A stretch of DNA of 40,913 nt from Chrysochromulina tobinii (lineage: Eukaryota): assembly GCA_001275005.1 (NCBI GenBank), contig JWZX01002640.1, positions 1 through 40,913 on the forward strand, in the 5' to 3' direction. Position 1 is the stretch's first letter. Every line of letters starts with the position of its first letter. A model generated the notes under the pieces. That model made no database searches. It was not told where the DNA came from and saw only the letters and a list, made by a program, of their open reading frames with translations. The translations under genes were made by a program, and so were the position numbers. Positions 1 to 40,913 of the stretch are shown here, piece after piece.

Positions 1-85
1 ACCCTAACCCTAACCCTAACCCTAACCCTAACCCTAACCCTAACCCTAACCCTAACCCTAACCCTAACCCTAACCCTAACCCTAA
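1..85 (-). repeat. Telomeric repeat (CCCTAA)14, i.e. TTAGGG on the minus strand; chromosome end
   Basis: Perfect CCCTAA x14 at 2-85 at the window edge, C-rich strand on +, as expected for a left chromosome end. Confidence 0.97.
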
Positions 86-3000
86 GCGCAACGGCAAAAG
101 CGAGGCCGCCCGCATCGCCCAGCTTGTTGCTGTTAAGGCTCAGCTGCGTCAGCGTCGTGTTCGTCTGAAGCGCAACGGCGAGCGCCTGGCTGCTCTCCGC
201 GCCGAGACTGTTGCCACCCAAGTCGAGCTGCGTCAGAGACCGGTTACGTGTGATAAGGTATGCAATCACGAGCCCGGACGCATCACCCAAGCGCTTCCCC
301 GAAAGCACAATACTCGCCGCGCTGGTGAGCTCCGCGATCGAGAGAACATCGCCGTCCAACGCGATCATGTGAAGAGTCGTGTTCGTCTTGAGCACCTCGA
401 CCAGCGCCTTGCCACTCTCCGTGCCAAGCTGGTTGCCACCCAAGTCGAGCTGCGTCAGAGATCGGTTCCCTGAGATCAAGTGTGCAATCACGAGCCCGGA
501 CGCATCACCCAAGCGCTTCCCCGAAAGCACAATACTCGCCGCGCTGGTGAGCTCCGCGATCGAGAGAACATCGCCGTCCAACGCGATCATGTGAAGGGTC
601 GTGTTCGTCTTGAGCGCCTCGACCACCGCCTTGCCACTCTCCGTGCCAAGCTGGTTGCCACCCAAGTCGAGCTGCGTCAGCGTCGTGTTCGTCTGGAGCG
701 CCACAGCAAGCGCACAGCCACCCGCATCGCCAAGCGTGTTGTGGTTGAGGCTCAGCTGCGTCATCGTCGTGTTCGTCTTGAGCACCTCGACCATCGCCTT
801 GCCACTTTCCGTGCCGAGCTGGTTGCCACCCAAGTCGAGCTGCGTCAGCGTCGTGTTTGTCTGGAGCGCCACAGCGAGCGAACAGCAACCCGCATCACCC
901 AGCTGGTTGCTGCTGAGGCTCAGCTTCGCAAGCGTCGTGTTCGTCTTCAGCATCTCGACCAGAGCCTTGCAGGTACCCGTGCAAAGCCGGTTGCCACCCA
1001 AGTCGAGCTGCGTCAGAGACCGATTCCCTGAGATCAGATGCGCAATCATGAGCCCGGACGCATCACCCAAGCGCTTCCCCGAAAGTACAATACTCGCCGC
1101 GCTGGTGAGCTCCGCGATCGAGATAAAATTGCCTTCCAAAGCGATCATGTGAAGGGTCGTATGCGTCTTGAGCATCTCAACCACCGCCTTACTACTCCCC
1201 GCGTTGAGCCCGATGCCATCCAAGCCGCACTGGTTGAAAACCAAGTTAAGCTTCTTTAGCGTCGTGTTCTTCTTTAGCATCTCAACCACCGCCTTGCCGC
1301 TCTCAGTGCCGAGCTGGTTGCCACCCAAGTCAAGCTGCGTCAGCGTCGTGTTCGTCTGGAGCACCACAGCAAGCCAATAGCCTACTGCATAGCCCAGCTT
1401 GTTGTAGTTGAGGCTCAGCTGCGCAAGCATGGTGTTCGTCTTGAGCACCTCTACCATCGCCTTGCCGCTCTCCGTGCCAAGTTGGTTGCTGCCCAAGTCG
1501 AGCTGTGTCAACGTCATGTTCGTCTGGAGCGCCACAGCGAGCGCACAGCCACCCGCATCGCCCAGCTTGTTGTTGTTCAAGCTCAGCTGCGTCAGCGTTG
1601 TGTTCGTCTGGAGAACTACAGCAAGCAAACATCCAACCGCATCCTCCAACTGGTTCTTGTTGAGGCTCAGCTGCGCAAGCTTTGTGTTCGTTTTGAGCGC
1701 CTCGACCATCGCCTTGCCGCTCTCCGTGCCAAGCTGGTTGTCACCCAAGTCGAGCTGCGTCAGCGTCGTGTTCGTCTGAAGCGCAACGGCGAGCGCCTTG
1801 CCACTTTCCGTGCCGAGCTGGTTGCCACCCAAGTCGAGCTGCGTCAGCGTCGTGTTCGTCTGGAGCGCCACAGCGAGCGCGCAGCCACCCGCATCGCCCA
1901 GATTGTTGCGGATGAGGCTCAGCTGCGTCAGCGTCGTGTTCGTCTGGAGCGCAACGGCGAGCGCCTTGCCGCTCTCCGTGCGAAGCTCGTTGCCACCCAA
2001 GTCGAGCTGCGTCAGCGTCGTGTTTGTCTGGAGCGCCACAGCGAGCGCGCAGCCACCCGCATCGCCCAGATTGTTGTGGTTGAGGCTCAGCTGTGTCAGC
2101 GTCGTGTTCGTCTTGAGCACCTCTTCCATCGCCTTGCCGCTCTCCGTGCCAAGCTGGTTGCCTCCAAAGTCGAGCTGCGTCAACGTCGTGTTCGTCTGGA
2201 GCACCACAGCAAGCCAATAGCCTGCAGCATCGCCCAGATTGTTGTGGTTGAGGCTCAGCTGCGTCAGCGTCGTGTTTGTCTTGAGCATCTCGACCAGAGC
2301 CTTGCAGATACCCGTGCAAAGCCGGTTGCCACCCAAGTCGAGCTGCGTCAGAGACCGGTTCCCTGAGATCAGATGCGCAATCATGAGCCCGGACGCATCA
2401 CCCAAGCGCTTCCCCGAAAGCACGACACTCGCCGAGCTGGTGAGCTCCACGATTGAGAGAACATCGCCGTCCAACGCGATCATATGAAGGGTCGTGTTCG
2501 TCTTGAGCATCTCGACCACCGCCGTGCCGCTCTCCGTGCCAAGCTGGTTGCCACCCAAGTCGAGCTGCGTCAGCGTCGTGTTTGTCTGGAGCGCCACAGC
2601 GAGCGCGCAGCCACCCGCATCGCCAAGCGTGTTGTGGTTGAGGCTCAGCTGCGTCAGCGTCGTGTTCGTCTGGAGCATAACGGCGAGCGCCTTGCCACTT
2701 TCCGTGCCGAGCTGGTTGCCACCCAAGTCGAGCTGCGTCAGCGTCGTGTTCGTCTGGAGCGCCACAGCGAGCGCGCAGCCACCCGCATCGCCAAGCGTGC
2801 TGTATTTGAGGCTCAGCTGCATCAGCGTCGTGTTCGTCTTTAGCATCTCGACCACCGCCTTGCCGCTCTCCGTGCCAAGCTGGTTGCCACCCAAGTCGAG
2901 CTGCGTCAGCGTCGTGTTCGTCTGGAGCGCCACAGCGAGCGCGCAGCCACCCGCATCGCACAGCCTGCTGTTGTTGAGGCTCAGCTGCGTCAGCGTCGTG

Positions 3001-6000
3001 TTCGTCTGAAGCGCAACGGCGAGCGCCTTGCCGCTCTCCGCGCCGAGACTGTTGCCACCCAAGTCGAGCTGCGTCAGAGACCGGTTACGGGAGATCTCTA
3101 TGGCGAGCGTGCGGCCGTCTGCATCGCCCAACTGGTTGCTTCTGAGGCTCAGCTGCGCAAGGGCCGTGTTCGTCTTGAGCACCTCGACCAGCGCCTTGCA
3201 GGTCTCCGTGCTGAGATTGTTGCCACCCAAGTCGAGCTGCGTCAGAGACCGGTTACGTGAGATCAGATGCGCAATCACGAGCCCGAACGCATCACCCAAG
3301 CGCTTCTCCGAAAGCACAATACTCGCCGCGCTGGTGAGCTCCACGATTGAGAGAACAACGCCGCCGCACGCGATCGTGTGAAAACTCGAGTTCATCTTGA
3401 GCAACTTAAGCACAGCCTTGTCCCTCTCCGTGCTGAGATTGTTGCCACCCAAGTCAAGATGCCTCAGCGTGGTGTTTGTCTGGAGCGCCACAGCGAGCGC
3501 GCAGCCACCCGAATCGCCCAGATTGTTGTGGTTGAGGCTCAGCTGCGTCAGCGTCGTGTTCGTCTGAAGCGCAACGGCGAGCGCCTTGCCGCTCTCCGCG
3601 CCGAGACTGCTGCCACCCAAGTCGAGCTGCGTCAGCGTCGTGTTTGTCTGGAGCGCCACAGCGAGCGCGCAGCCACCCGAATCGCCCAGATTGTTGTGGT
3701 TGAGGCTCAGCTGCGTCAGCGTCGTGTTCGTCTGAAGCGCAACGGCGAGCGCCTTGCCGCTCTCCGCGCCGAGCCGGTTGCCACCCAAGTCGAGCTGCGT
3801 CAGAGACCAGTTACGTGAGATCAAGTGTGCAATCACGAGCCCGGACGCATCACCCAAGCGCTTCTCCGAAAGCACAATACTCGCCGCGCTGGTGAGCTCC
3901 GCGATCGAGAGAACATCGCCGTCCAACGCTACTATGCGAAGGGTCGTGTTCGTCTTGAGCACCTCGACCATCGCCTTGCCGCTCTCCGCGTGGAGCCTGT
4001 TGTCACCCAAGTCGAGCTGCGTCAGCATCGTGTTCGTCTGGAGCGCCACAGCGAGCGCGCAGCCACCCGCATCGCCCAGCCAGTTGCCGTTGAGGCTCAT
4101 CTGCGTCAGAGACCGGTTACTTGTGATCAGGTGCGTGATCACGAGCCCGGACGCATCACCCAAGCGCTTCCTCGAAAGCACAATACTCGCCGCGCTGGTG
4201 AGCTCCGCGATCGAGAGAACATCGCCGTCCAACGCTACTATGCGAAGGGTCGTGTTCGTCTTGAGCGCCTCGACCATCGCCTTGCCGCTCTCCGCGCCGA
4301 GATCGTTGCGACCCAAGTCGAGCTGCGTCAGCGTCGTATTCGTCTTGAGCGCCTCGACCATCTTGACGCTCTCGCCATGAGTCAACTTGTTCTCTCGCAA
4401 GCCGAGCGACGCCAGCCCATGCATCAGCTGCACCACCACAGCGACCATCGTCGGCCGATCTCCCCCAATCAGTTTCTGGCTCAGGTCGAGCTCATCACCC
4501 ACCCCCCCGGCTGTCTGCTTCAGCCCCTTGCCAAAGGCGTCGCCCATCTCGTTGCCGAGCATGACCACGTTGGCCCAAAACGCCGGCCACTGCCAAGGTG
4601 GCGGCGACCCCTCAGGGAGACGGTACTTGCCCGAGCAGATGGCCTGCGCTGCAAAGAACTCCTGGAAGGAGAGGTGCGCCGACTGCATCTGGAGCGGCTC
4701 GACCTGCAGCAGGCTGAGAAGAGGGAGCCTATCCTGCCCCACGCGTTCGCGCACCTCCGCGACTGCCGCCCGCTCCTCATCGCGCAGCGCCTGGACCGCG
4801 CCGTCCAGGGCAGGATGGCTCGCCGCATCTGCTCTCGCCATCTGCGCCCGGCAAGCAGCTTTGTCCAGCCCAGACGATGCGAGCTGCTCGGGCTCCAGCC
4901 GCTCTATTGTGGCGCCGTCCTCCAGCTTGACCCTGTAATGAATGGAATGAGATGTTTTATAGATATCGTCGATAACGCCGCGTTGGCCCTTCCCCTTGCC
5001 GTCCAGCAGCTCCACGTAGTGGCCCTCCTCCGCCCGGCCCTTGAACGTCTGGAAGGGGTACACCACCTTCGCATCCAAGTCGGCGAGCGTCCCCGGCGGC
5101 GCAAAGGCGCCCAGCGCCCCGCGGAGTAGCTGCACGTCGGTGATCACGCGCGCCTGCGCCACGTGCGCCTCGAAGAACACAACTTCCAGCAGCGTGCGCA
5201 CTTCTGCCGTCACGACGCCGCCGCGCGCGAGCATCGCGTCGGATGCGCTCGCGTACAGCTCCACGACCGTCTTCGGCATGCCCAGCCCTTTGCGGATCTC
5301 GAAGACCGACGCGACCATCGAGAGCATCAGCGGGTTGGCCGTGACGCGATGCTGCATCGTCGGCGCAGCAGGGTCCGTGCTCGTTGGCATGCGCTCGACA
5401 AAGGCCATCAGCTGCCTCACGTCCCCCTCATTCCCCAGCCGCTGCAGCAGCGCCTGCTCCTGCTGCGCCTCCGTCAGCGGCGCCAGCTTCAGCAAGCGGA
5501 AGCCGGAAAAGCGCGCCTCGACCACGCCCGCCGGCCGCGAGGTGCAGAGCATCACGTGGCCCTGATGTGCCAGCACCTTGACAACGTGCTGCTCGATCTC
5601 GGCGCGCTTGGCGCCGGCCTCGTCGAGCCCGTCGAGGAGGAGGAGCGCTCGGCGCGCCATCATCGCCTGGCGCAGCATGCGGTACACCTCGGGCCTCTCA
5701 GCGTACGTGAGGCAGAGGTACGCGTCGACCCAGTTCCAGTGCGACGTGAACGCGTCTGGTGCATCGCGCAGCTTCGCCTGGAGCAGCTGCACCTTGATCA
5801 CGATGGGCACCAGCTCGGCACAATCGAGCGCCAGGACCACCACCTGGCTGATGAGCGTCGTTTTGCCCGCTGCGGGGGGCGCGGTGAGCAGCGCGGCTCC
5901 CGGAGCAGTGATCGCCTCGCCAAGGCTTCGTGCAGCGTGTAGCGAGTGCAGCCAATCGCTCAGGCCGCGCACGTCGCGCACGCCCGCCAGATCGGCATCT

Positions 6001-8156
6001 CCCATCACCTCGATGGCCACGCACTGCTGCAGTGCATCCAGCCGATTGCCGGAGAGCGCATCAAAGATCTGCGTGTGCTGCTTGCGCAGCTCCCGCGTCC
6101 ACCACTCGCGCATTGCCTCGTAGGCGGCGTGCGGCAGCTCGCGCGGCGCGTGGTTCCACGGGTGCAGCGTGAGCGTGGCTGGTGGCTCGCCGCTGCCCTC
6201 CAAGAAGGTGAGGCGGTGGCCGAGGCCATCGGCGCCCGTCGAGGCCACGTCGGCATCGCGCCAGCCGCCGGCCGTACACACGGTGAGCAGCTGGCCGGCG
6301 GCGTAGCGCCGGGCGCCGCTGGCGCCGCTGGCGCGCAGCGCCGCAGTGAGCGCGGCCTCGAGCGCGACAGGCTGCAGCCTCTCGACCGCCGCGCGCACCG
6401 TGCCGAGCGCGGCTTCGAGCTGCGTAAGATCGCCCTGGCTGAAGAGCGTCGCCGCCGCATTCACGCACGACTGCACGGCGCTGCCCACCTCGCGCACCGC
6501 GTATGCGATGCTTTGGCACCGCGCCGCACGGTCGGCGATCTCGCGCGCCCGCTCGCCGACGGCGCGCAGAGCCGACTCCGACTGCATCCGCCGAGCATCC
6601 TCCTCCAGGCCGCGTGCGGGCTCGACGAGGTCTCGAAGCGCACGCGCATCGCCGACGAACGCGGCGTCCCAGCCGGCTGCGGGCGGCCGCCACGGCAGCA
6701 ACGACTGGCTGCATCGGTCGTAGGCGAGCTCGGCGTCGTCGACGCCCGTGACGGCGGCGGCGACGCGCCCCCCGGTCGCATCGACGACGCCAAAGCGCGG
6801 ACCGCCGCCCGTGCCGCTGCCCTGCCAAGAGAGGAGCAGCAGCGGCTGTCCCTCGGCGAGGCGCAGCGGCGCGGCAGCGGGCGCATCGACCTGCGGCAAC
6901 GGCTCCGCCGGCGCGGCCATCGCGCTGCCGGACGCGAGCGCGAGCACGGATGTCACCACGCCGACAATACGCCCGACGTACTCGCGGTAGAGGGCGGGCA
7001 CCGTCTCCTTGTCGCCCTTGCCGGTGAAGGTGGCGCGCTCGATGCTGGAGACCACCTCGGCGACGCGCGTCTCCAGCTGGCCGATGGGCGCTACGCCCGG
7101 CTCGGTGGGCTGGCCGCTGCGCAGCACGAGCACCTTGGACGGAAGCGCGTCGAGCGCCTCCCTCACGCGCGGAACCACACGCAGCCGCGCGAGCAGCTCA
7201 TAGCTCACAGCGTTTTCAAAGACGCACCAGCCGCGCTCGTCGTACGGGCGCTCGTTGTACAGTGTGTCGACGCCGTCGCACAGCTCGGGCCACGGCCCCG
7301 CGCGCTTGGCGGCGAGCGCCGCCTCGTGGGACGCGAAGCGCACGACGGGAGGGTTGCGCGTAGGCTCGAACGCGACGATGGCGCCAAAGCAGCCAAGCGT
7401 CTCGCGGATGGAATCCTCGCCCGTCGTGGGCTTCAGCCCGAAGAGGCACAACGCACCGTCGAACGCCTCCGGCCGGGGCGGGATCTCGCGCGACTGCAGC
7501 ACGGTGGTGCCAACGGCGGAGGCGTACACGTCGGCCATGACCTTGATCGCGCGCTTGAAGGCGTCGCTCTCGTCGGGCGTGCGCTCGCGGTCGGGCAGGG
7601 TCTGGAAGAGCGAGGCGTAGTCCCAGAAGACGCCCTCGATGTGCAGGTGCTCCTCGAGGGCGGCGAGCATCACGTCCAGGCGCGCGCCGTCCGGGTCGCA
7701 CTCGCCGGGTGACAGCCAGCCGTGGGTGAGCGCGCCCACGCCGCGGTTGCCGCGCCGGAGCAGCGCGACGGCCTCCTCCGCCGAGAGGAAGGGCGACTCA
7801 GCCTTCAGCGCCTCGAGCTCCTGCCTCCGTTTCAGCCGTCTCCCGTCTGGCTGCCGCCGCAGCCGCCGCAGCCGCCGCAGCCACGAGACGCGCAGCAGCT
7901 TGATGTCGCCGGCGCGGAGCGCCTCGGCAAGCCGGTCGTCGAGTCCCGAGAGGACGCGAATCATCTCGGGTGGGCCAATTGCCACGGTCGGCCGCTCAGC
8001 GTCGTCGTCGTCATCGATGTCGTCGAGGTTGGTATCGTCCAAGGCATTGGGCTGCGTGGCGCCAACGGACGGTCCCGATGAAGACGGCCCACGCGGCGTG
8101 GTGGTCATCTCAATCGCGTCAACAATGGAGTTCCCGATCACGACATTCGGGTTCAT
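3..8156 (-). CDS. NLR-like STAND protein (HET-like domain, NACHT NTPase, RI-like LRR array); ~2690 aa before the telomere, no stop codon, runs into telomere as (RV)n
   Basis: Hand translation of the minus frame. In-frame TAG upstream at 8262-8264, first ATG at 8156 (MNPNVVIGNS). HET-like motifs ALTHGW, FWDYASL, YDERGWCVFE, ATFTGKGD. Walker A APPAAGKTT (5856-5882), Walker B LLLLDGLDE (5619-5645), CTSRP, ANPLMLSM, winged-helix HLSFQEFFAA (~4647-4676), then 28-aa LRRs. The ORF track lists no minus-strand ORF in this frame below 8200, consistent with no stop before the sequence edge. Confidence 0.92.
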   Translation of the reverse strand, partial: MNPNVVIGNSIVDAIEMTTTPRGPSSSGPSVGATQPNALDDTNLDDIDDDDDAERPTVAIGPPEMIRVLSGLDDRLAEALRAGDIKLLRVSWLRRLRRLRRQPDGRRLKRRQELEALKAESPFLSAEEAVALLRRGNRGVGALTHGWLSPGECDPDGARLDVMLAALEEHLHIEGVFWDYASLFQTLPDRERTPDESDAFKRAIKVMADVYASAVGTTVLQSREIPPRPEAFDGALCLFGLKPTTGEDSIRETLGCFGAIVAFEPTRNPPVVRFASHEAALAAKRAGPWPELCDGVDTLYNERPYDERGWCVFENAVSYELLARLRVVPRVREALDALPSKVLVLRSGQPTEPGVAPIGQLETRVAEVVSSIERATFTGKGDKETVPALYREYVGRIVGVVTSVLALASGSAMAAPAEPLPQVDAPAAAPLRLAEGQPLLLLSWQGSGTGGGPRFGVVDATGGRVAAAVTGVDDAELAYDRCSQSLLPWRPPAAGWDAAFVGDARALRDLVEPARGLEEDARRMQSESALRAVGERAREIADRAARCQSIAYAVREVGSAVQSCVNAAATLFSQGDLTQLEAALGTVRAAVERLQPVALEAALTAALRASGASGARRYAAGQLLTVCTAGGWRDADVASTGADGLGHRLTFLEGSGEPPATLTLHPWNHAPRELPHAAYEAMREWWTRELRKQHTQIFDALSGNRLDALQQCVAIEVMGDADLAGVRDVRGLSDWLHSLHAARSLGEAITAPGAALLTAPPAAGKTTLISQVVVLALDCAELVPIVIKVQLLQAKLRDAPDAFTSHWNWVDAYLCLTYAERPEVYRMLRQAMMARRALLLLDGLDEAGAKRAEIEQHVVKVLAHQGHVMLCTSRPAGVVEARFSGFRLLKLAPLTEAQQEQALLQRLGNEGDVRQLMAFVERMPTSTDPAAPTMQHRVTANPLMLSMVASVFEIRKGLGMPKTVVELYASASDAMLARGGVVTAEVRTLLEVVFFEAHVAQARVITDVQLLRGALGAFAPPGTLADLDAKVVYPFQTFKGRAEEGHYVELLDGKGKGQRGVIDDIYKTSHSIHYRVKLEDGATIERLEPEQLASSGLDKAACRAQMARADAASHPALDGAVQALRDEERAAVAEVRERVGQDRLPLLSLLQVEPLQMQSAHLSFQEFFAAQAICSGKYRLPEGSPPPWQWPAFWANVVMLGNEMGDAFGKGLKQTAGGVGDELDLSQKLIGGDRPTMVAVVVQLMHGLASLGLRENKLTHGESVKMVEALKTNTTLTQLDLGRNDLGAESGKAMVEALKTNTTLRIVALDGDVLSIAELTSAASIVLSRKRLGDASGLVITHLITSNRSLTQMSLNGNWLGDAGGCALAVALQTNTMLTQLDLGDNRLHAESGKAMVEVLKTNTTLRIVALDGDVLSIAELTSAASIVLSEKRLGDASGLVIAHLISRNWSLTQLDLGGNRLGAESGKALAVALQTNTTLTQLSLNHNNLGDSGGCALAVALQTNTTLTQLDLGGSSLGAESGKALAVALQTNTTLTQLSLNHNNLGDSGGCALAVALQTNTTLRHLDLGGNNLSTERDKAVLKLLKMNSSFHTIACGGVVLSIVELTSAASIVLSEKRLGDAFGLVIAHLISRNRSLTQLDLGGNNLSTETCKALVEVLKTNTALAQLSLRSNQLGDADGRTLAIEISRNRSLTQLDLGGNSLGAESGKALAVALQTNTTLTQLSLNNSRLCDAGGCALAVALQTNTTLTQLDLGGNQLGTESGKAVVEMLKTNTTLMQLSLKYSTLGDAGGCALAVALQTNTTLTQLDLGGNQLGTESGKALAVMLQTNTTLTQLSLNHNTLGDAGGCALAVALQTNTTLTQLDLGGNQLGTESGTAVVEMLKTNTTLHMIALDGDVLSIVELTSSASVVLSGKRLGDASGLMIAHLISGNRSLTQLDLGGNRLCTGICKALVEMLKTNTTLTQLSLNHNNLGDAAGYWLAVVLQTNTTLTQLDFGGNQLGTESGKAMEEVLKTNTTLTQLSLNHNNLGDAGGCALAVALQTNTTLTQLDLGGNELRTESGKALAVALQTNTTLTQLSLIRNNLGDAGGCALAVALQTNTTLTQLDLGGNQLGTESGKALAVALQTNTTLTQLDLGDNQLGTESGKAMVEALKTNTKLAQLSLNKNQLEDAVGCLLAVVLQTNTTLTQLSLNNNKLGDAGGCALAVALQTNMTLTQLDLGSNQLGTESGKAMVEVLKTNTMLAQLSLNYNKLGYAVGYWLAVVLQTNTTLTQLDLGGNQLGTESGKAVVEMLKKNTTLKKLNLVFNQCGLDGIGLNAGSSKAVVEMLKTHTTLHMIALEGNFISIAELTSAASIVLSGKRLGDASGLMIAHLISGNRSLTQLDLGGNRLCTGTCKALVEMLKTNTTLAKLSLSSNQLGDAGCCSLAVALQTNTTLTQLDLGGNQLGTESGKAMVEVLKTNTTMTQLSLNHNTLGDAGGCALAVALQTNTTLTQLDLGGNQLGTESGKAVVEALKTNTTLHMIALDGDVLSIAELTSAASIVLSGKRLGDASGLVIAHLISGNRSLTQLDLGGNQLGTESGKALVEVLKTNTTLHMIALDGDVLSIAELTSAASIVLSGKRLGDASGLVIAYLITRNRSLTQLDLGGNSLGAESSQALAVALQTNTTLTQLSLNSNKLGDAGGLAFAVALRVRVRVRVRVRVRVRVRVRVRVRVRVR
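86..4428 (-). repeat. Coding tandem array of ~47 LRR modules (~40 of 84 bp/28 aa and 7 of 138 bp/46 aa)
   Basis: Type A TNTTLTQLDLGGNQLGTESGKAxVExLK, type B TNTTLTQLSLxxNxLGDAGGCALAVALQ, type C TNTTLHMIALDGDVLSIAELTSAASIVLSGKRLGDASGLVIAHLISG followed by NRSL. Units are near-identical at DNA level. Confidence 0.93.
4640..5900 (-). other. NACHT NTPase plus helical/winged-helix domains of the NLR-like ORF
   Basis: ALLTAPPAAGKTTL, ALLLLDGLDEAG, MLCTSRP, LAPLTEAQQ, ANPLMLSMVA, HLSFQEFFAA in canonical NACHT order. Confidence 0.88.
6985..7935 (-). other. HET-like N-terminal effector domain of the NLR-like ORF
   Basis: Motif order ALTHGW...DPDGARL...VFWDYASLFQ...VMADVYAS...YDERGWCVFE parallels the HET domain motifs ALSYxW, WIDxxCIxQ, MxxIY, RxWxxQE. 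Confidence 0.6.
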
Positions 8157-8373: not shown

Positions 8374-9678
8374 ATGGGATGTGCCCCGTCCAAGGCCACG
8401 GCAGCTCCCGCAGAGACCGATGATGATGATGAAAGGGATGTCAAGAGGCTCGCTGCGCAGTATGCAGAACGGCTCGAGCAGGAGAGTCAACGTATGGCAC
8501 TCGAAGCAGCAGCAGCAGCAGCAAAAAAAGCACCGAAGTCCAAGTCCCAGCCCAATTCTAAGGCTCATACGGCCTCGTCGGGAGTATCGGATGCCTCAAC
8601 GCTCAAGGTCGCCCGGTGGCTCTCCGATGGAACTGGCCACGTTGCTACGGTCGAAACCGCTAGTCAACGAGAACCGTTGGCCAACGCATTGGCGCCACCC
8701 TCAGCCCCAGCGCGAGTAACAGATCTGACGACGCTCATGGTCGCGCGTTGGCTTACCGAAGGAGCTGAGCCCGTAGCTCCTGTCCATGCCGCTCCAGCCA
8801 CTTCCACGACCGCCGCCGGGCGCGTCTCAGATGCCCCAACTCTCAAGCTCGCGCATCAGCTCTCTTCAGGAGCTGAAGCTACTGCTGAAGGAGCTGAACC
8901 GGCTCCAGCCGCCGCCGCGCCAGCCCCAGCCGCGGCGCTCCCACTGACGAGGCGCTTGGACACTGATGAGTCGCTCCCACTGACGAGGCGCTTGGACGCG
9001 GAGAACCACACCTTGATGAGCCAGTTGGTGGAGACTTGGGGGGCGGAGGATGCGAAGCTAGAGCGCCTGGCCGCGGAGCGGGCGGCGGCGGAGAAGGCGG
9101 AGACAGAGCGCTTGGCCGCGGAGATTGGGTCGTTTGAGGTAGGCGCTGGCGCGCTTCCCGACGGCGACGAGAGCGACGAGGAAATCTACACCGAGATGAG
9201 AAACAGAAGCCAGATCATCTCGCTACAGCAGCAGCCAGTGAACATGCTTAGCCTCCAGGAGTACATGCGATACGGCGAGAGCGCAATGCTGCGCGACGCG
9301 CGGGCACGGCGCGACATGGCCCTCGCCGAGGAACGCGTCGTCAACATCGAGTACTATCGGGATCTGCTCAATAGCAGCCCTTCGAAAGGCAGCCCGTCTC
9401 CCGTGCACGACTCTGGTGCACCCTCAACAGGCTCGACTCTGCCGACCGATCGGTCGCCATCTCAGCTGCTCAAGAGCACGCCAAGCAAGATCACGCCGCC
9501 TGCGCTTAAAATCCCCACGGTGTTGCCATCACCTGGTACGGAAGGCATGGATTTCATCGATACGGCTCGCCTCCTCTTCAAGAAAGCCAACGAGGCCATC
9601 AGCAGCGTGATGGTGGGCGATTATCTACAAGCTAGCACACCGGCGGCGGACACTGTCGAGAAACGGCTCGTTTTCTAA
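8374..9678 (+). CDS. Hypothetical protein, 434 aa, with predicted N-myristoylation/palmitoylation signal and internal repeats
   Basis: Begins MGCAPSK (MGCxxS acylation consensus). Three VxDxxTLxxAxxLxxG repeats, a duplicated LPLTRRLD and an S/P/T-rich tail. Confidence 0.75.
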   Translation: MGCAPSKATAAPAETDDDDERDVKRLAAQYAERLEQESQRMALEAAAAAAKKAPKSKSQPNSKAHTASSGVSDASTLKVARWLSDGTGHVATVETASQREPLANALAPPSAPARVTDLTTLMVARWLTEGAEPVAPVHAAPATSTTAAGRVSDAPTLKLAHQLSSGAEATAEGAEPAPAAAAPAPAAALPLTRRLDTDESLPLTRRLDAENHTLMSQLVETWGAEDAKLERLAAERAAAEKAETERLAAEIGSFEVGAGALPDGDESDEEIYTEMRNRSQIISLQQQPVNMLSLQEYMRYGESAMLRDARARRDMALAEERVVNIEYYRDLLNSSPSKGSPSPVHDSGAPSTGSTLPTDRSPSQLLKSTPSKITPPALKIPTVLPSPGTEGMDFIDTARLLFKKANEAISSVMVGDYLQASTPAADTVEKRLVF

Positions 9679-10981: not shown

Positions 10982-13900
10982 ATGTCCTCCTTGGACCGTC
11001 GCGTGGCGCACCTGCTCGACGGCTCGGGTCTGACGGCGGCGCAGCGCGAGGAGCAACTCGTCGCCGCCGTCGCGCTGCTCCGCGCGGCCGAGGCGGGCGG
11101 CAGCGCCAAGCCCGAGACGGCCGCGCCCGAAAACTTCCTGCTGTGCTCGGAGGTGGCGCTCACGCTCGACGTGGTGGGCAAGCCGGCGGTGCTCGAGCTC
11201 GCACGCAGCTGCGTCGAACACTTTCTCCGCTCGCGCCCGCCGCGCACGCAGTTCCTCGTGCGCGCCTATTTCGCGCTCGGCTCCGTGCAGGCTGCCGAGG
11301 CGGCCCCGTGCAAGCTCGAGGAGCTTGCGGCACGGCTGCTCGCGGCGGCAAAGGTGGCTAACAAGGGGCTCACGCTCGCGGCCGAGCTGGGCCGCGCGCA
11401 CCGCTTCCTCGTGTACAACGCCTCGGTGCACCTCTACCGGATCCTGCGGCCGCTGCTCGAATACAACGGCGAGACGGCGGCAGCGACGACGGCGCTGCTC
11501 GAGGGCGTGCTCAAGGCCCTCGCGGCAGCAGAGGAGCCGGACGCGGCGTGGCGTCTGCAGCTCTCGATGCAGCTCGCGCGCTGCATGGAGCGCTGCGGCC
11601 GGCGCAAGGACGCGGGCGCCCTGCTGGGCACGTGCGCGCCGCTCGCCGCCGAGGCCAAGAAGCGCGAGGACGAGGAGTCCAAGCTGGGCGGCGAGTCCAA
11701 GCTGGGCGGCACCAAGCGGACGGGGCCGCCGCTGCAGGAGCTGCTGCTGCAGCTGCAGGCGCACATGGTCGGCGACGACGCGGCCGCGCTCAAGAAGCTG
11801 CGCGACGAGTGCCAGCCCGACCCACGCAAGCGCTGCCTCGTACTCACGCAGCTCCTATGCGACGGCGGCCCGGCGGGTCCACCCGACCCGAAGGCACCTC
11901 CCTTTTCGGCCGCGCAGGAGGTGGCGGACGCGGTGGCGGCGCTCGACCCGGAGCTCGGGGCGGCGCTCGCGACCAAGGGCGGCGAGGCCGCCATCAAGCG
12001 CGCCGTCGCCAACGTGCCGCTCAACTCGTGCCCGCACGACGACGTGCTCGTGGCGCTCGCCTCGCAGGCAGCACGCCTCGGGCTCCTCGCGATCGCGGGC
12101 CACTGCGCGCAGCGGTGCGCGGCGGCGCCCCGGCTGTCGAGCCGCGTGCGCTCGGCGTACATCAAGGCGGTGTGCCTCGTGGGCTCGCTCGACGAGGGCG
12201 ACGGGCCCAAGCAGGCGGGCGTGTACACCAAGCTGATGGTGAACACACGCATCGACGCGCTCAAAGTGCTCGAGGAGGCGCTCACCTCGGCGCGTCGCGT
12301 TGGCGAGCCCGAGCTGATCCAGGATGGATGCGTGCTCATCTGGAACGTGGCGCTCCCGCTCCTCCAGCCCTCGCTCCTCGGGCACGCCGAGCGCGCGCTC
12401 TACCTCGCCGCCGCCGCTCTCGAGGCCATCGGCTCGCCGCTCGCGCAGCTGCGCGCCTCAGTGCACCTCGAGCTCGCGCGGCTCGACGCGTCTCGCGAGC
12501 TTGTGGCCAAGGCGGCGGCGCACGTGGGGAAGGCCGAGGGGCTCAACATCCCCGCCGACGCGGGCACCGGCGCTGCCGTCAACCCGATCTCGCGCCCGCT
12601 GAGAATGCTCGGCACCCGTCTCGCTCTCAAGCTCGATGTGTTCCGAGAGCCCGCCACTGCATCTGAGCGCGCGATGGTCAAGCTCGAGCAGGCGCGCACG
12701 GACAAGCGCGCGCCCCTCAAGCGCACACTGCTCACCCAGGTTCTCGAGGAGCTGCAGGCCGCCGACCCCGACCCCGAGGACGACGCCAAGGGCGGCGACG
12801 ACGAGAATGCCAAGCGCGAGCGCGCTGTACTGTGGGAAGAGCTCATGAAGGCGGGCTGGGCGCTGCGCATGTCCGCCGTCGCGCGCGCCGCCGCCGCTGC
12901 GCTGCTCGCGCCGCAGTGGACGCCCGCCACCGACGGCCCGCTCGTGAGCGCGCAGGCCGAGGCGTACTTCACGCTGGGCGAGACGTATATCTCCGAATTG
13001 GGCGAGATGCAGGAGCAGGCGGCCAAGGAGGCGGCCGCGCTCGAGGCGGCGCGCGCCACCGCGGCCGAGCGCGGCCTGCCGCCGCCGGTCGCGCCGCCCG
13101 GCAAGGCGGAGGCAGCCGAGGCTGCGCGCGAGGCCGTGCGCCAGAAGGCTCTCGACTCGTTCAAGCGCGGCATTGGGGTGGGCCTCTCTGTCAAGGACGA
13201 CCTGCTCGTGCACAACGGGTGCATCTACGTACTCAACTACAACCGCTCGCTGCTGCGCGCGGCGCAGTACGAGCCGCTCGTGCCCACGCTGCGCGCGTGC
13301 TTCAGCGCTCTACAGCAGTGCGATGCCAAGTCGATGAAGGCCGACGGGCAGCAGCTGCGCATCGCTCTCGCCACCTGCTGCTCGTTCGCCCTTGCGCTCG
13401 AGGACGCTGCAACCGAGCCGCCCGCGTCTGGCAGCGGCCCACGCGTCGCTCTCAAGGACGCGGACGCGGCCGCGTGGCTCAAGGAGGCGCTCGACGTGTG
13501 CAAGTGGGGCTGCGAGCTGTGCGCGGGCCAAGCCCAGCTCAAGGCGCAGCTGACCGCGTGCTGGGCTCGGCTGCAGGGCTACGGCGGCGCCAAGGCTGCG
13601 CAGTTGAATGTGGGCACGGAGCCCGAGGCGACTGCGCTCGCGCTCCTCGAGTTGCTCGCCTGCGGCATCCTCGACACGGGCCCCGCGGCGGACAAGGCCG
13701 CCGCGCTCGGCAAGGCGCGCGAGCTCCTCACCACGAGTAGCGGTTCGCCCAAGCCCGAGCCTGAGCTGTGGGTGCGTGTGGCGCAGCAGGCGCTCGCCCT
13801 CGGCGACCTCGCCTCCGTCGTCAAGGCATGCGAGGCGGCGCTCCAGCCGCTCAGCGCCAAGCGCGAGGCCAATGCGACCATCCTGAAGGAGGAGTGGAAG

Positions 13901-40880: not shown

Positions 40881-40913
<33 letters not shown>
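40881..40913. repeat. Terminal poly-C homopolymer (33 nt), probably a contig-end feature or artefact
   Basis: Uninterrupted C run to the end of the window. Confidence 0.8.

Follow-up and report, generated by a model that had tools for sequence, protein, structure and literature searches.

A haptophyte family of NLR-type genes with a probable TIR-like, insert-bearing effector and exchanged modules, including a probably telomere-truncated copy

The combinatorial assembly of NLRs is already known from fungi, in which effector, NOD and repeats are joined in various combinations and the number of repeats varies (PMC4986451, PMC10197012; here and below, such sources are cited for the parts of their text that were accessible). 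Podospora HET-E/D/R and the wider fungal NLR repertoire combine a TIR-related effector, a NACHT domain and internally similar repeats (PMC4986451, PMC10197012). As far as the accessible text of PMC4986451 goes, LRR sensors are absent from that repertoire; the same source reports HET homologues in the Haptophyceae. Animal NLRs of the NLRC3/NOD type and choanoflagellate proteins have a NACHT followed by 28-residue LRRs of the LRR_6 type, the NACHT and LRR proteins of choanoflagellates being described in PMC6040629. Plant TIR-NB-ARC-LRR proteins (RPP1, L6, RPS4) join a TIR effector with a conserved glutamate to a C-terminal LRR and may harbour extra integrated domains. The TeTIR-NACHT-WD40/TPR proteins (TEP1, NWD1/2) carry an extended TIR-like domain upstream of their NACHT, and extended TIR on NACHT proteins has recently been shown to be a glutamate-dependent NADase (10.64898/2026.09.21.753143).

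Giant viruses end haptophyte blooms, and microalgae have no established antiviral receptor pathway. In virus-resistant Gephyrocapsa huxleyi, TIR, LRR and NACHT genes are up-regulated; according to the accessible text, TIR-based antiviral systems were previously undescribed in microalgae, and the TIR genes of that study are devoid of NBS and LRR (PMC12489294). In brown algae, the repeats of NB-ARC-TPR and LRR candidates are shuffled (cited in PMC13449251). The accessible part of PMC8195603 holds nothing on the family presented here. Neither this haptophyte family nor an RRM within a TIR/HET domain was found described in the literature searched, most subscription papers and supplements lying outside the search.

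We analysed a stretch of 40,913 nucleotides from Chrysochromulina tobinii (the window). On its minus strand, an unbroken frame runs from an ATG at 8156 to base 84 and encodes 2,691 residues (Table 1). Over the whole protein, Pfam finds LRR_6 at E=4.8e-122, as the initial annotation had expected, and NACHT at E=2.7e-4 (21.3 bits, under the cut-off of 26.7). The closest named relatives are proteins of C. tobinii and C. parva (84-89%). Because the frame is open over 8 kb, its domains are ordered and its dN/dS is below 1 relative to its paralogues, it is not a chance frame. The effector-NTPase-repeat order is found within a single chain, also in paralogues. The initial annotation had placed this layout in a probable microalga, which is borne out for a Chrysochromulina-type haptophyte; it had also reported an intronless ORF ending at base 86, of which the single open frame holds and the end does not, as the frame runs on into the telomere repeat. 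The 2,691-residue ORF is a real NLR-type gene of a haptophyte family whose effector is probably TIR-like and bears an insert and whose modules have been exchanged. An automatic name, RanGAP, was rejected since it only mirrors the LRR type. PADLOC gave no defence-system match for eight proteins. In the Atlas, no named match was found, and the nearest clusters (0.77-0.78) are haptophyte proteins, which we take as a lead only.

Table 1. Features of the NLR-type gene and of the telomere junction (positions in the window).
Feature	Position	Strand	Evidence
Perfect telomere array, (TTAGGG)n with 14.2 units, joined in frame to the final LRR with an overlap of two T bases	1..85	-	Repeat and LRR-position comparison
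NLR-type STAND protein ORF without stop codon	84..8156	-	ORF translation, Pfam
LRR array (aa 1226-2691), 28-aa units, two alternating types and irregular units, C-terminal cap missing	84..4481	-	Pfam, repeat analysis
Site of an extra in-frame LRR block of 687 bases (229 aa) in L001	3561..3636	-	L001 compared with the window
Presumed winged-helix end of the NACHT module, HLSFQE motif	4482..4739	-	Motif alignment
KOW/SH3-like insert inside the NACHT module	4857..5039	-	Pfam KOW E=0.033, weak; LRR-type rows only, 4/10
NACHT NTPase and the helical domain after it (aa 700-1030)	5067..6059	-	Pfam, motifs
Linker (aa 425-690), in LRR-type paralogues, not in WD40/ankyrin types	6087..6884	-	Paralogue alignment
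Probable TIR/HET-like effector, an N-terminal alpha/beta domain (aa 62-408) interrupted by the RRM	6933..7973	-	AlphaFold pLDDT 93; insert-free homologue fold matches Z 3-4.8
RGWCVFE motif, E314 candidate catalytic glutamate	7215..7235	-	E in 114/117 homologues continuing past the motif
RRM-fold insert (aa 226-303), without the usual RNA-stacking aromatics	7248..7481	-	VIA Z 10.2; Pfam RRM_1; residue counts

Compared with fungal HET-NACHT-WD40 proteins, the haptophyte effector has no Pfam HET match and is split by an RRM-fold insert. Unlike fungal NLRs, the family has LRR sensors and a unicellular algal host, and it spreads one effector over several NACHT clades. Like the plant proteins, it has a C-terminal LRR, extra integrated domains and an effector that is predicted to be TIR-like and whose glutamate is conserved; in contrast to them, its NTPase is a NACHT and not an NB-ARC, its LRRs are of the 28-residue type, identity is ~10% and the extra domain lies within the effector. 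It differs from animal NLRs by the absence of a CARD/PYD/Death domain and of sequence matches to solved NLR NACHTs. The TeTIR proteins are described with WD40 or TPR and, in the accessible text, without LRR or RRM insert, the likeness to the haptophyte proteins being by description only (10.64898/2026.09.21.753143).

As initially annotated, the NACHT motifs follow in order: Walker A (5891-5856), Walker B (5648-5619, minus strand), CTSRP, NPLMLSM and HLSFQE. The stretch that carries the last of these is presumed to be the winged-helix domain typical of NACHT proteins. In the window copy, the first glycine of Walker A is missing. When the region was searched alone, NACHT (PF05729) was indeed the best Pfam family (E=2.1e-5), yet at 24.9 bits it falls short of the 26.7 cut-off, which the paralogues L002, L004, L006 and P0123 pass. 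A PDB sequence search with the NACHT region gave nothing, and the NACHT profile matched no solved NLR in the PDB (best E=0.064). No animal-type death fold (CARD, PYD or DD) was matched in Pfam at E<=0.1, and the N-terminal domain is modelled as alpha/beta. With a dN/dS of 0.22-0.23 for the NACHT relative to the two closest paralogues, and values for the effector given below, the gene is under purifying selection relative to its paralogues. We have little doubt that the family represents a STAND/NLR-type switch. The linker that precedes the NACHT in the window protein has no Pfam match at E<=10.

The LRR array spans ~1,460 residues. Positions 9 and 11 of the repeats are the most variable, with pN about twice the mean pS; across all positions, pN/pS amounts to 0.62-0.65, and the compared pairs are non-independent, so positive selection on the LRRs is not shown. 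The additional block of repeats in L001, a locus from a second assembly, reflects either real variation in repeat number or an assembly collapse.

The N-terminal domain had initially been annotated as HET-like. The Pfam HET profile (PF06985) is unmatched in the 2,691-residue protein and in every homologue scanned. Neither HET nor TIR was matched by the N-terminal domain of the window protein, of 67 alignment members (best 25 of 35 families), of 69 proteins (best five each) or of nine insert-free proteins at E<=10, nor was HET in 22 scanned proteins. PDB sequence searches with profiles of the domain returned RRM or MORN matches only, and Foldseek searches of PDB and viral libraries gave no match at E<=0.001. 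What remains of the initial claim is a weak resemblance to the TIR superfamily together with a conserved glutamate.

That resemblance comes from structure models. Residues 60-420 are modelled by AlphaFold with a pLDDT of 93. A structure search with the window's own domain gave RRM matches only, and we therefore modelled L031, a natural homologue devoid of the insert (pLDDT 93). Against 48,161 chains its highest Z was 4.8, none reaching 5, with rmsd values of 3.4-5 Å over ~95-115 residues. TIR, SEFIR, ThsB and nucleoside deoxyribosyltransferase entries make up 9 of the best 14 and 20 of the best 50 rows, as grouped by entry title and known family, and glycosyltransferase-type Rossmann folds make up 14 of the best 50, at Z values (4.5 and 4.3) level with the TIR rows. 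In a second structural look, TIR proteins were 7 of the best 10 (18 rows), with RPP1 in the lead (Z 3.7).

The sequences of the homologues contain four conserved blocks, (T/S)YGW, FxDxxSLxQ, MxDxYAS and RGWxxxE, together with W, D, Q, Y and E positions that are almost invariant. The blocks appear to resemble the HET consensus, a series of ordered blocks ending in RxWxxxE. The glutamate of the last block is present in 114 of the 117 homologues that have both the upstream and the downstream motifs, a set that includes near-identical paralogues; under a looser filter it is found in 117/157, the misses being chiefly short proteins that may result from intron read-through. In the AlphaFold models of the window domain and of L031, E314 sits at the start of the helix that follows the third strand. 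TIR NADases require a glutamate on helix alpha-C (PMC9153377).

On these grounds, the models make a TIR/HET-superfamily fold likely for the N-terminal domain, which is best described as probably TIR/HET-like, although not proven and not a member of Pfam HET. Whether E314 supports the predicted hydrolysis of NAD+ or of another N-glycoside appears evenly poised. The domain might instead be another Rossmann-like enzyme or a scaffold, not a TIR/HET NADase, in a family devoted to non-immune signalling. The modest top Z score, the glycosyltransferase folds level with the TIR rows and the unmatched HET and TIR HMMs agree with such an interpretation, as do the many scanned homologues that join the N-terminal domain to MORN repeats and have no NACHT, because of which the domain is not NLR-specific. 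Nevertheless, TIR-superfamily entries outnumber every other group in each of the two structure searches, the five residues are near-invariant, and the effector position and module shuffling are like those of fungal NLRs (PMC4986451). We thus consider a non-TIR enzyme or scaffold unlikely and retain the TIR/HET-like assignment.

The initial annotation had overlooked the RRM-fold insert of this domain, as well as the loss of the stop codon at the telomere junction. The insert follows the third core strand and precedes the helix with the glutamate. Its fold is supported by VIA (Z 10.2, rmsd 3.1 Å, 74 residues), and Pfam RRM_1 is found at E<=1 in 34 of the 67 alignment members. At the positions that we take to be RNP2-2, RNP1-3 and RNP1-5, the window protein has C237, P269 and V271 in place of aromatic residues. 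Cysteine occupies column 237 in 57/63 rows, tyrosine is found at column 269 in 4/61, and none of the six commonest residues at column 271 is aromatic. Among 154 distinct homologues with both flanking motifs, the insert is RRM-sized in 130, absent in 15 and larger in 9. C1 or PHD-like fingers account for larger inserts in P0160, P0163 and P0243, and P0136 has a PDZ domain in the same slot. Relative to 11 paralogues, dN/dS is 0.14-0.40 for the RRM and 0.34-0.52 for its host domain. As a regulatory design, an insert that sits within an effector and beside its predicted active-site helix would be uncommon. Natural insert-bearing and insert-free versions are available for comparison, and E314 offers a defined residue to mutate.

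The initial annotation had also proposed a lineage-specific receptor, in agreement with our findings, but had missed that the gene belongs to a multi-copy family. In 40 metagenome loci, from which the paralogue counts are drawn, 19 match the N-terminal domain at 77-100%; these correspond to 14 distinct loci, with six under one assembly prefix. Their C-termini are LRRs (L002, L006, L008), ankyrin repeats (L009, L013, L014, L015), WD40 repeats (L005, L012, L016), a PUB domain with a weak OTU match (L007) or, in P0122, a PH domain. The initial annotation had framed the gene as an animal-fungal hybrid. This framing is superfluous, because HET homologues are already reported in the Haptophyceae, NACHT occurs with LRR in choanoflagellates, and the LRR is one exchangeable C-terminus among others.

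Across NACHT clades with different ends, the common N-terminal domain is 77-94% identical. WD40 and ankyrin paralogues are 77-90% identical to the window protein in the N-terminal domain and 46-49% in the NACHT, and P0021 has the reverse pattern (49% and 91%, respectively); the comparison covers 28 of 29 proteins, L004 being left out for short coverage. The N-domain and NACHT trees conflict, as each data set rejects the other's clade (AU p=7.9e-7 and 5e-57, quick trees of a 17-protein subset). In 5/7 WD40/ankyrin loci, DNA similarity breaks at base 6934, which is the end of the N-terminal domain. Thus, the effector and NACHT modules of the paralogues have conflicting histories. P0122 has the same start as the window gene and is 91-96% identical to it across the first 500 residues before its PH-domain end. 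Its contig is equal in size to that on which the neighbouring gene has a copy with 99.3% identity, and P0122 may be an allele of the window locus.

A profile search at E<=1e-30 retrieved 768 clusters, the profile including RRM and MORN columns. A pattern-limited scan of viral and prokaryotic contigs found no relatives, which is weak evidence of absence. Several homologues have other arrangements. In L031 (9761-11386), the insert-free effector is joined directly to MORN repeats in the absence of a NACHT. In L007 (7463-18152), the similarity to the window gene halts at residue 1093 and resumes ~6.2 kb further on at residue 1113; PUB domains (E=3.6e-32) and the weak OTU match are encoded in the DNA between, which may represent either a ubiquitin/p97-related module integrated into the protein or an insertion that disrupts the gene. 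In L004 and L019, a TGA at a short tandem duplication near 13009 stops the NACHT at the same place, and the gene is likely a pseudogene. In the ankyrin-type L013 (8078-14680) and P0128, the effector domain is preceded by Mind bomb SH3 repeats. In the distant homologues P0259, P0270 and P0148, the effector is fused with a bromodomain and BET, a weak TIR_2 match, or EF-hands and LRR.

We turn to the 3' end of the window gene. The frame has no stop codon and enters the (TTAGGG)n repeat midway through an LRR unit. After the matching LRR positions, CAGAC is found in 17/18 cases, and AGGG occurs solely at the telomere junction, where the LRR and the telomere repeat share a microhomology of two T bases. 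The intact LRR paralogues L002, L008, P0049, P0123 and P0126 have a common C-terminal cap and a stop, and the window copy has neither. The array is the sole one in the window. Among the 40 fetched loci, only L001 and L002 have telomere arrays; both are contig-terminal and in telomere orientation, and none is internal. L001 harbours the same junction at the end of its contig, and is identical to the window over 14,338 bases upstream and over the 3,476 bases preceding the telomere. The two assemblies may derive from one culture and for this reason are not fully independent. L002 is an intact paralogue whose gene stops 2 kb short of the array.

A telomere-healed break would leave a junction of this kind, where terminal repeats adjoin the coding part of a gene and share a few bases with it, and the junction very likely arose by de novo telomere addition to a broken chromosome. 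Such events after a break have been described for Plasmodium var genes (PMC5550746). As in the P. falciparum var pseudogenes of that source, telomere repeats directly join the coding region in one member of a variable, multi-copy family; the organism and gene family differ, and in the DNA examined a telomere is seen beside 2 of the 14 distinct close haptophyte loci. The fusion might alternatively be an assembly join, or the start of an intron with telomere-like repeats in a gene that is intact. The junction sequence would allow a GT splice donor, LRR arrays are easily misassembled (the 687-base block separates the window from L001), and read mapping skips bases 1-98 as a repeat, so that the reads begin beyond the junction. 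However, the junction is identical in the second assembly after 3,476 identical bases, and the contig-terminal position and orientation of both arrays among the 40 loci, with no other array in the window, also argue against an intact gene, which we hold to be very unlikely.

The window gene is therefore probably a telomere-truncated copy of the family. Having lost its terminal repeats along with the cap, the stop codon and the 3' UTR, it is probably non-functional or weak. Conceivably, the truncated copy remains active, and breakage at chromosome ends together with recombination among repeats creates new or auto-active receptors. Every motif is intact across 8 kb, the paralogue L002 is intact with a telomere 2 kb away, and P0122 may be an allele of the locus with another C-terminus. 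RNA-library contigs match the window copy with 0-1 differences over 222-352 bases; however, these contigs are shallow, their depth being too low to show expression, and DNA carry-over is possible. Moreover, mRNAs that lack a stop codon are usually degraded, and a recent break would equally leave the frame intact. Plasmodium fusions of this sort are termed pseudogenes (PMC5550746). Continued activity thus appears improbable to us, and we favour a disabled copy. Summed over contigs, depth across the N-domain and NACHT is ~1,000-2,500 compared with 80 for adjacent DNA (X1), a figure that is not a copy number. A telomere-cut copy represents one route for the loss or remodelling of such genes. For assays, the window copy is unsuited and the intact L002 or L008 is preferable.

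By analogy with known NLRs (PMC10197012), an intact member would be closed at rest. Its repeat domain would bind a ligand, upon which the NACHT would oligomerise; the N-domains would then cluster and switch on their predicted TIR-like NAD+ cleavage, and the loss of NAD+ would kill or arrest the cell. The RRM insert, beside the glutamate helix, might act as a regulatory gate or a decoy rather than as a classic RNA binder. Taken as a whole, the explanation that best fits, and that we hold with some reserve, is a haptophyte STAND family of ligand-driven NACHT switches with a predicted NAD-cleaving TIR-like domain, of which the window copy is likely disabled. A defensive role, in which death or arrest of the cell would stop viruses or other invaders, seems somewhat favoured. 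A bolder and doubtful proposal is that haptophytes have their own NLR immune system. It would consist of a TIR-like NADase cassette with a slot for swappable decoys (RRM, C1/PHD finger, PDZ) that recombination joins to various NACHT clades and to C-termini of LRR, ankyrin, WD40, PH or ubiquitin-related type, also among alleles of one locus, with chromosome ends as a site of turnover; its receptors would kill virus-infected cells. In a unicellular alga that can be cultured, the family provides candidates that unite effector, NACHT and sensor in one protein.

As for the remainder of the window, a divergent 434-residue ORF without Pfam match lies on the plus strand (8374-9678), 218 bases from the start of the NLR gene, and belongs to a cluster of 30 members. 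Two genes neighbouring the NLR cluster with C. parva proteins. Between 10610 and 40725, Pfam identifies a CFAP46-like TPR protein, an EF-hand/IQ protein, a zinc alcohol dehydrogenase, a VWA protein, a beta-lactamase-fold peptidase, two protein kinases and a Nodulin-like/MFS transporter, all ordinary eukaryotic genes. The telomere, the CFAP46 match and the matches to Chrysochromulina led us to reject the idea that the window is bacterial. A 33-base poly-C run (40881-40913) closes the window and is probably an assembly break, and the L001 contig extends further.
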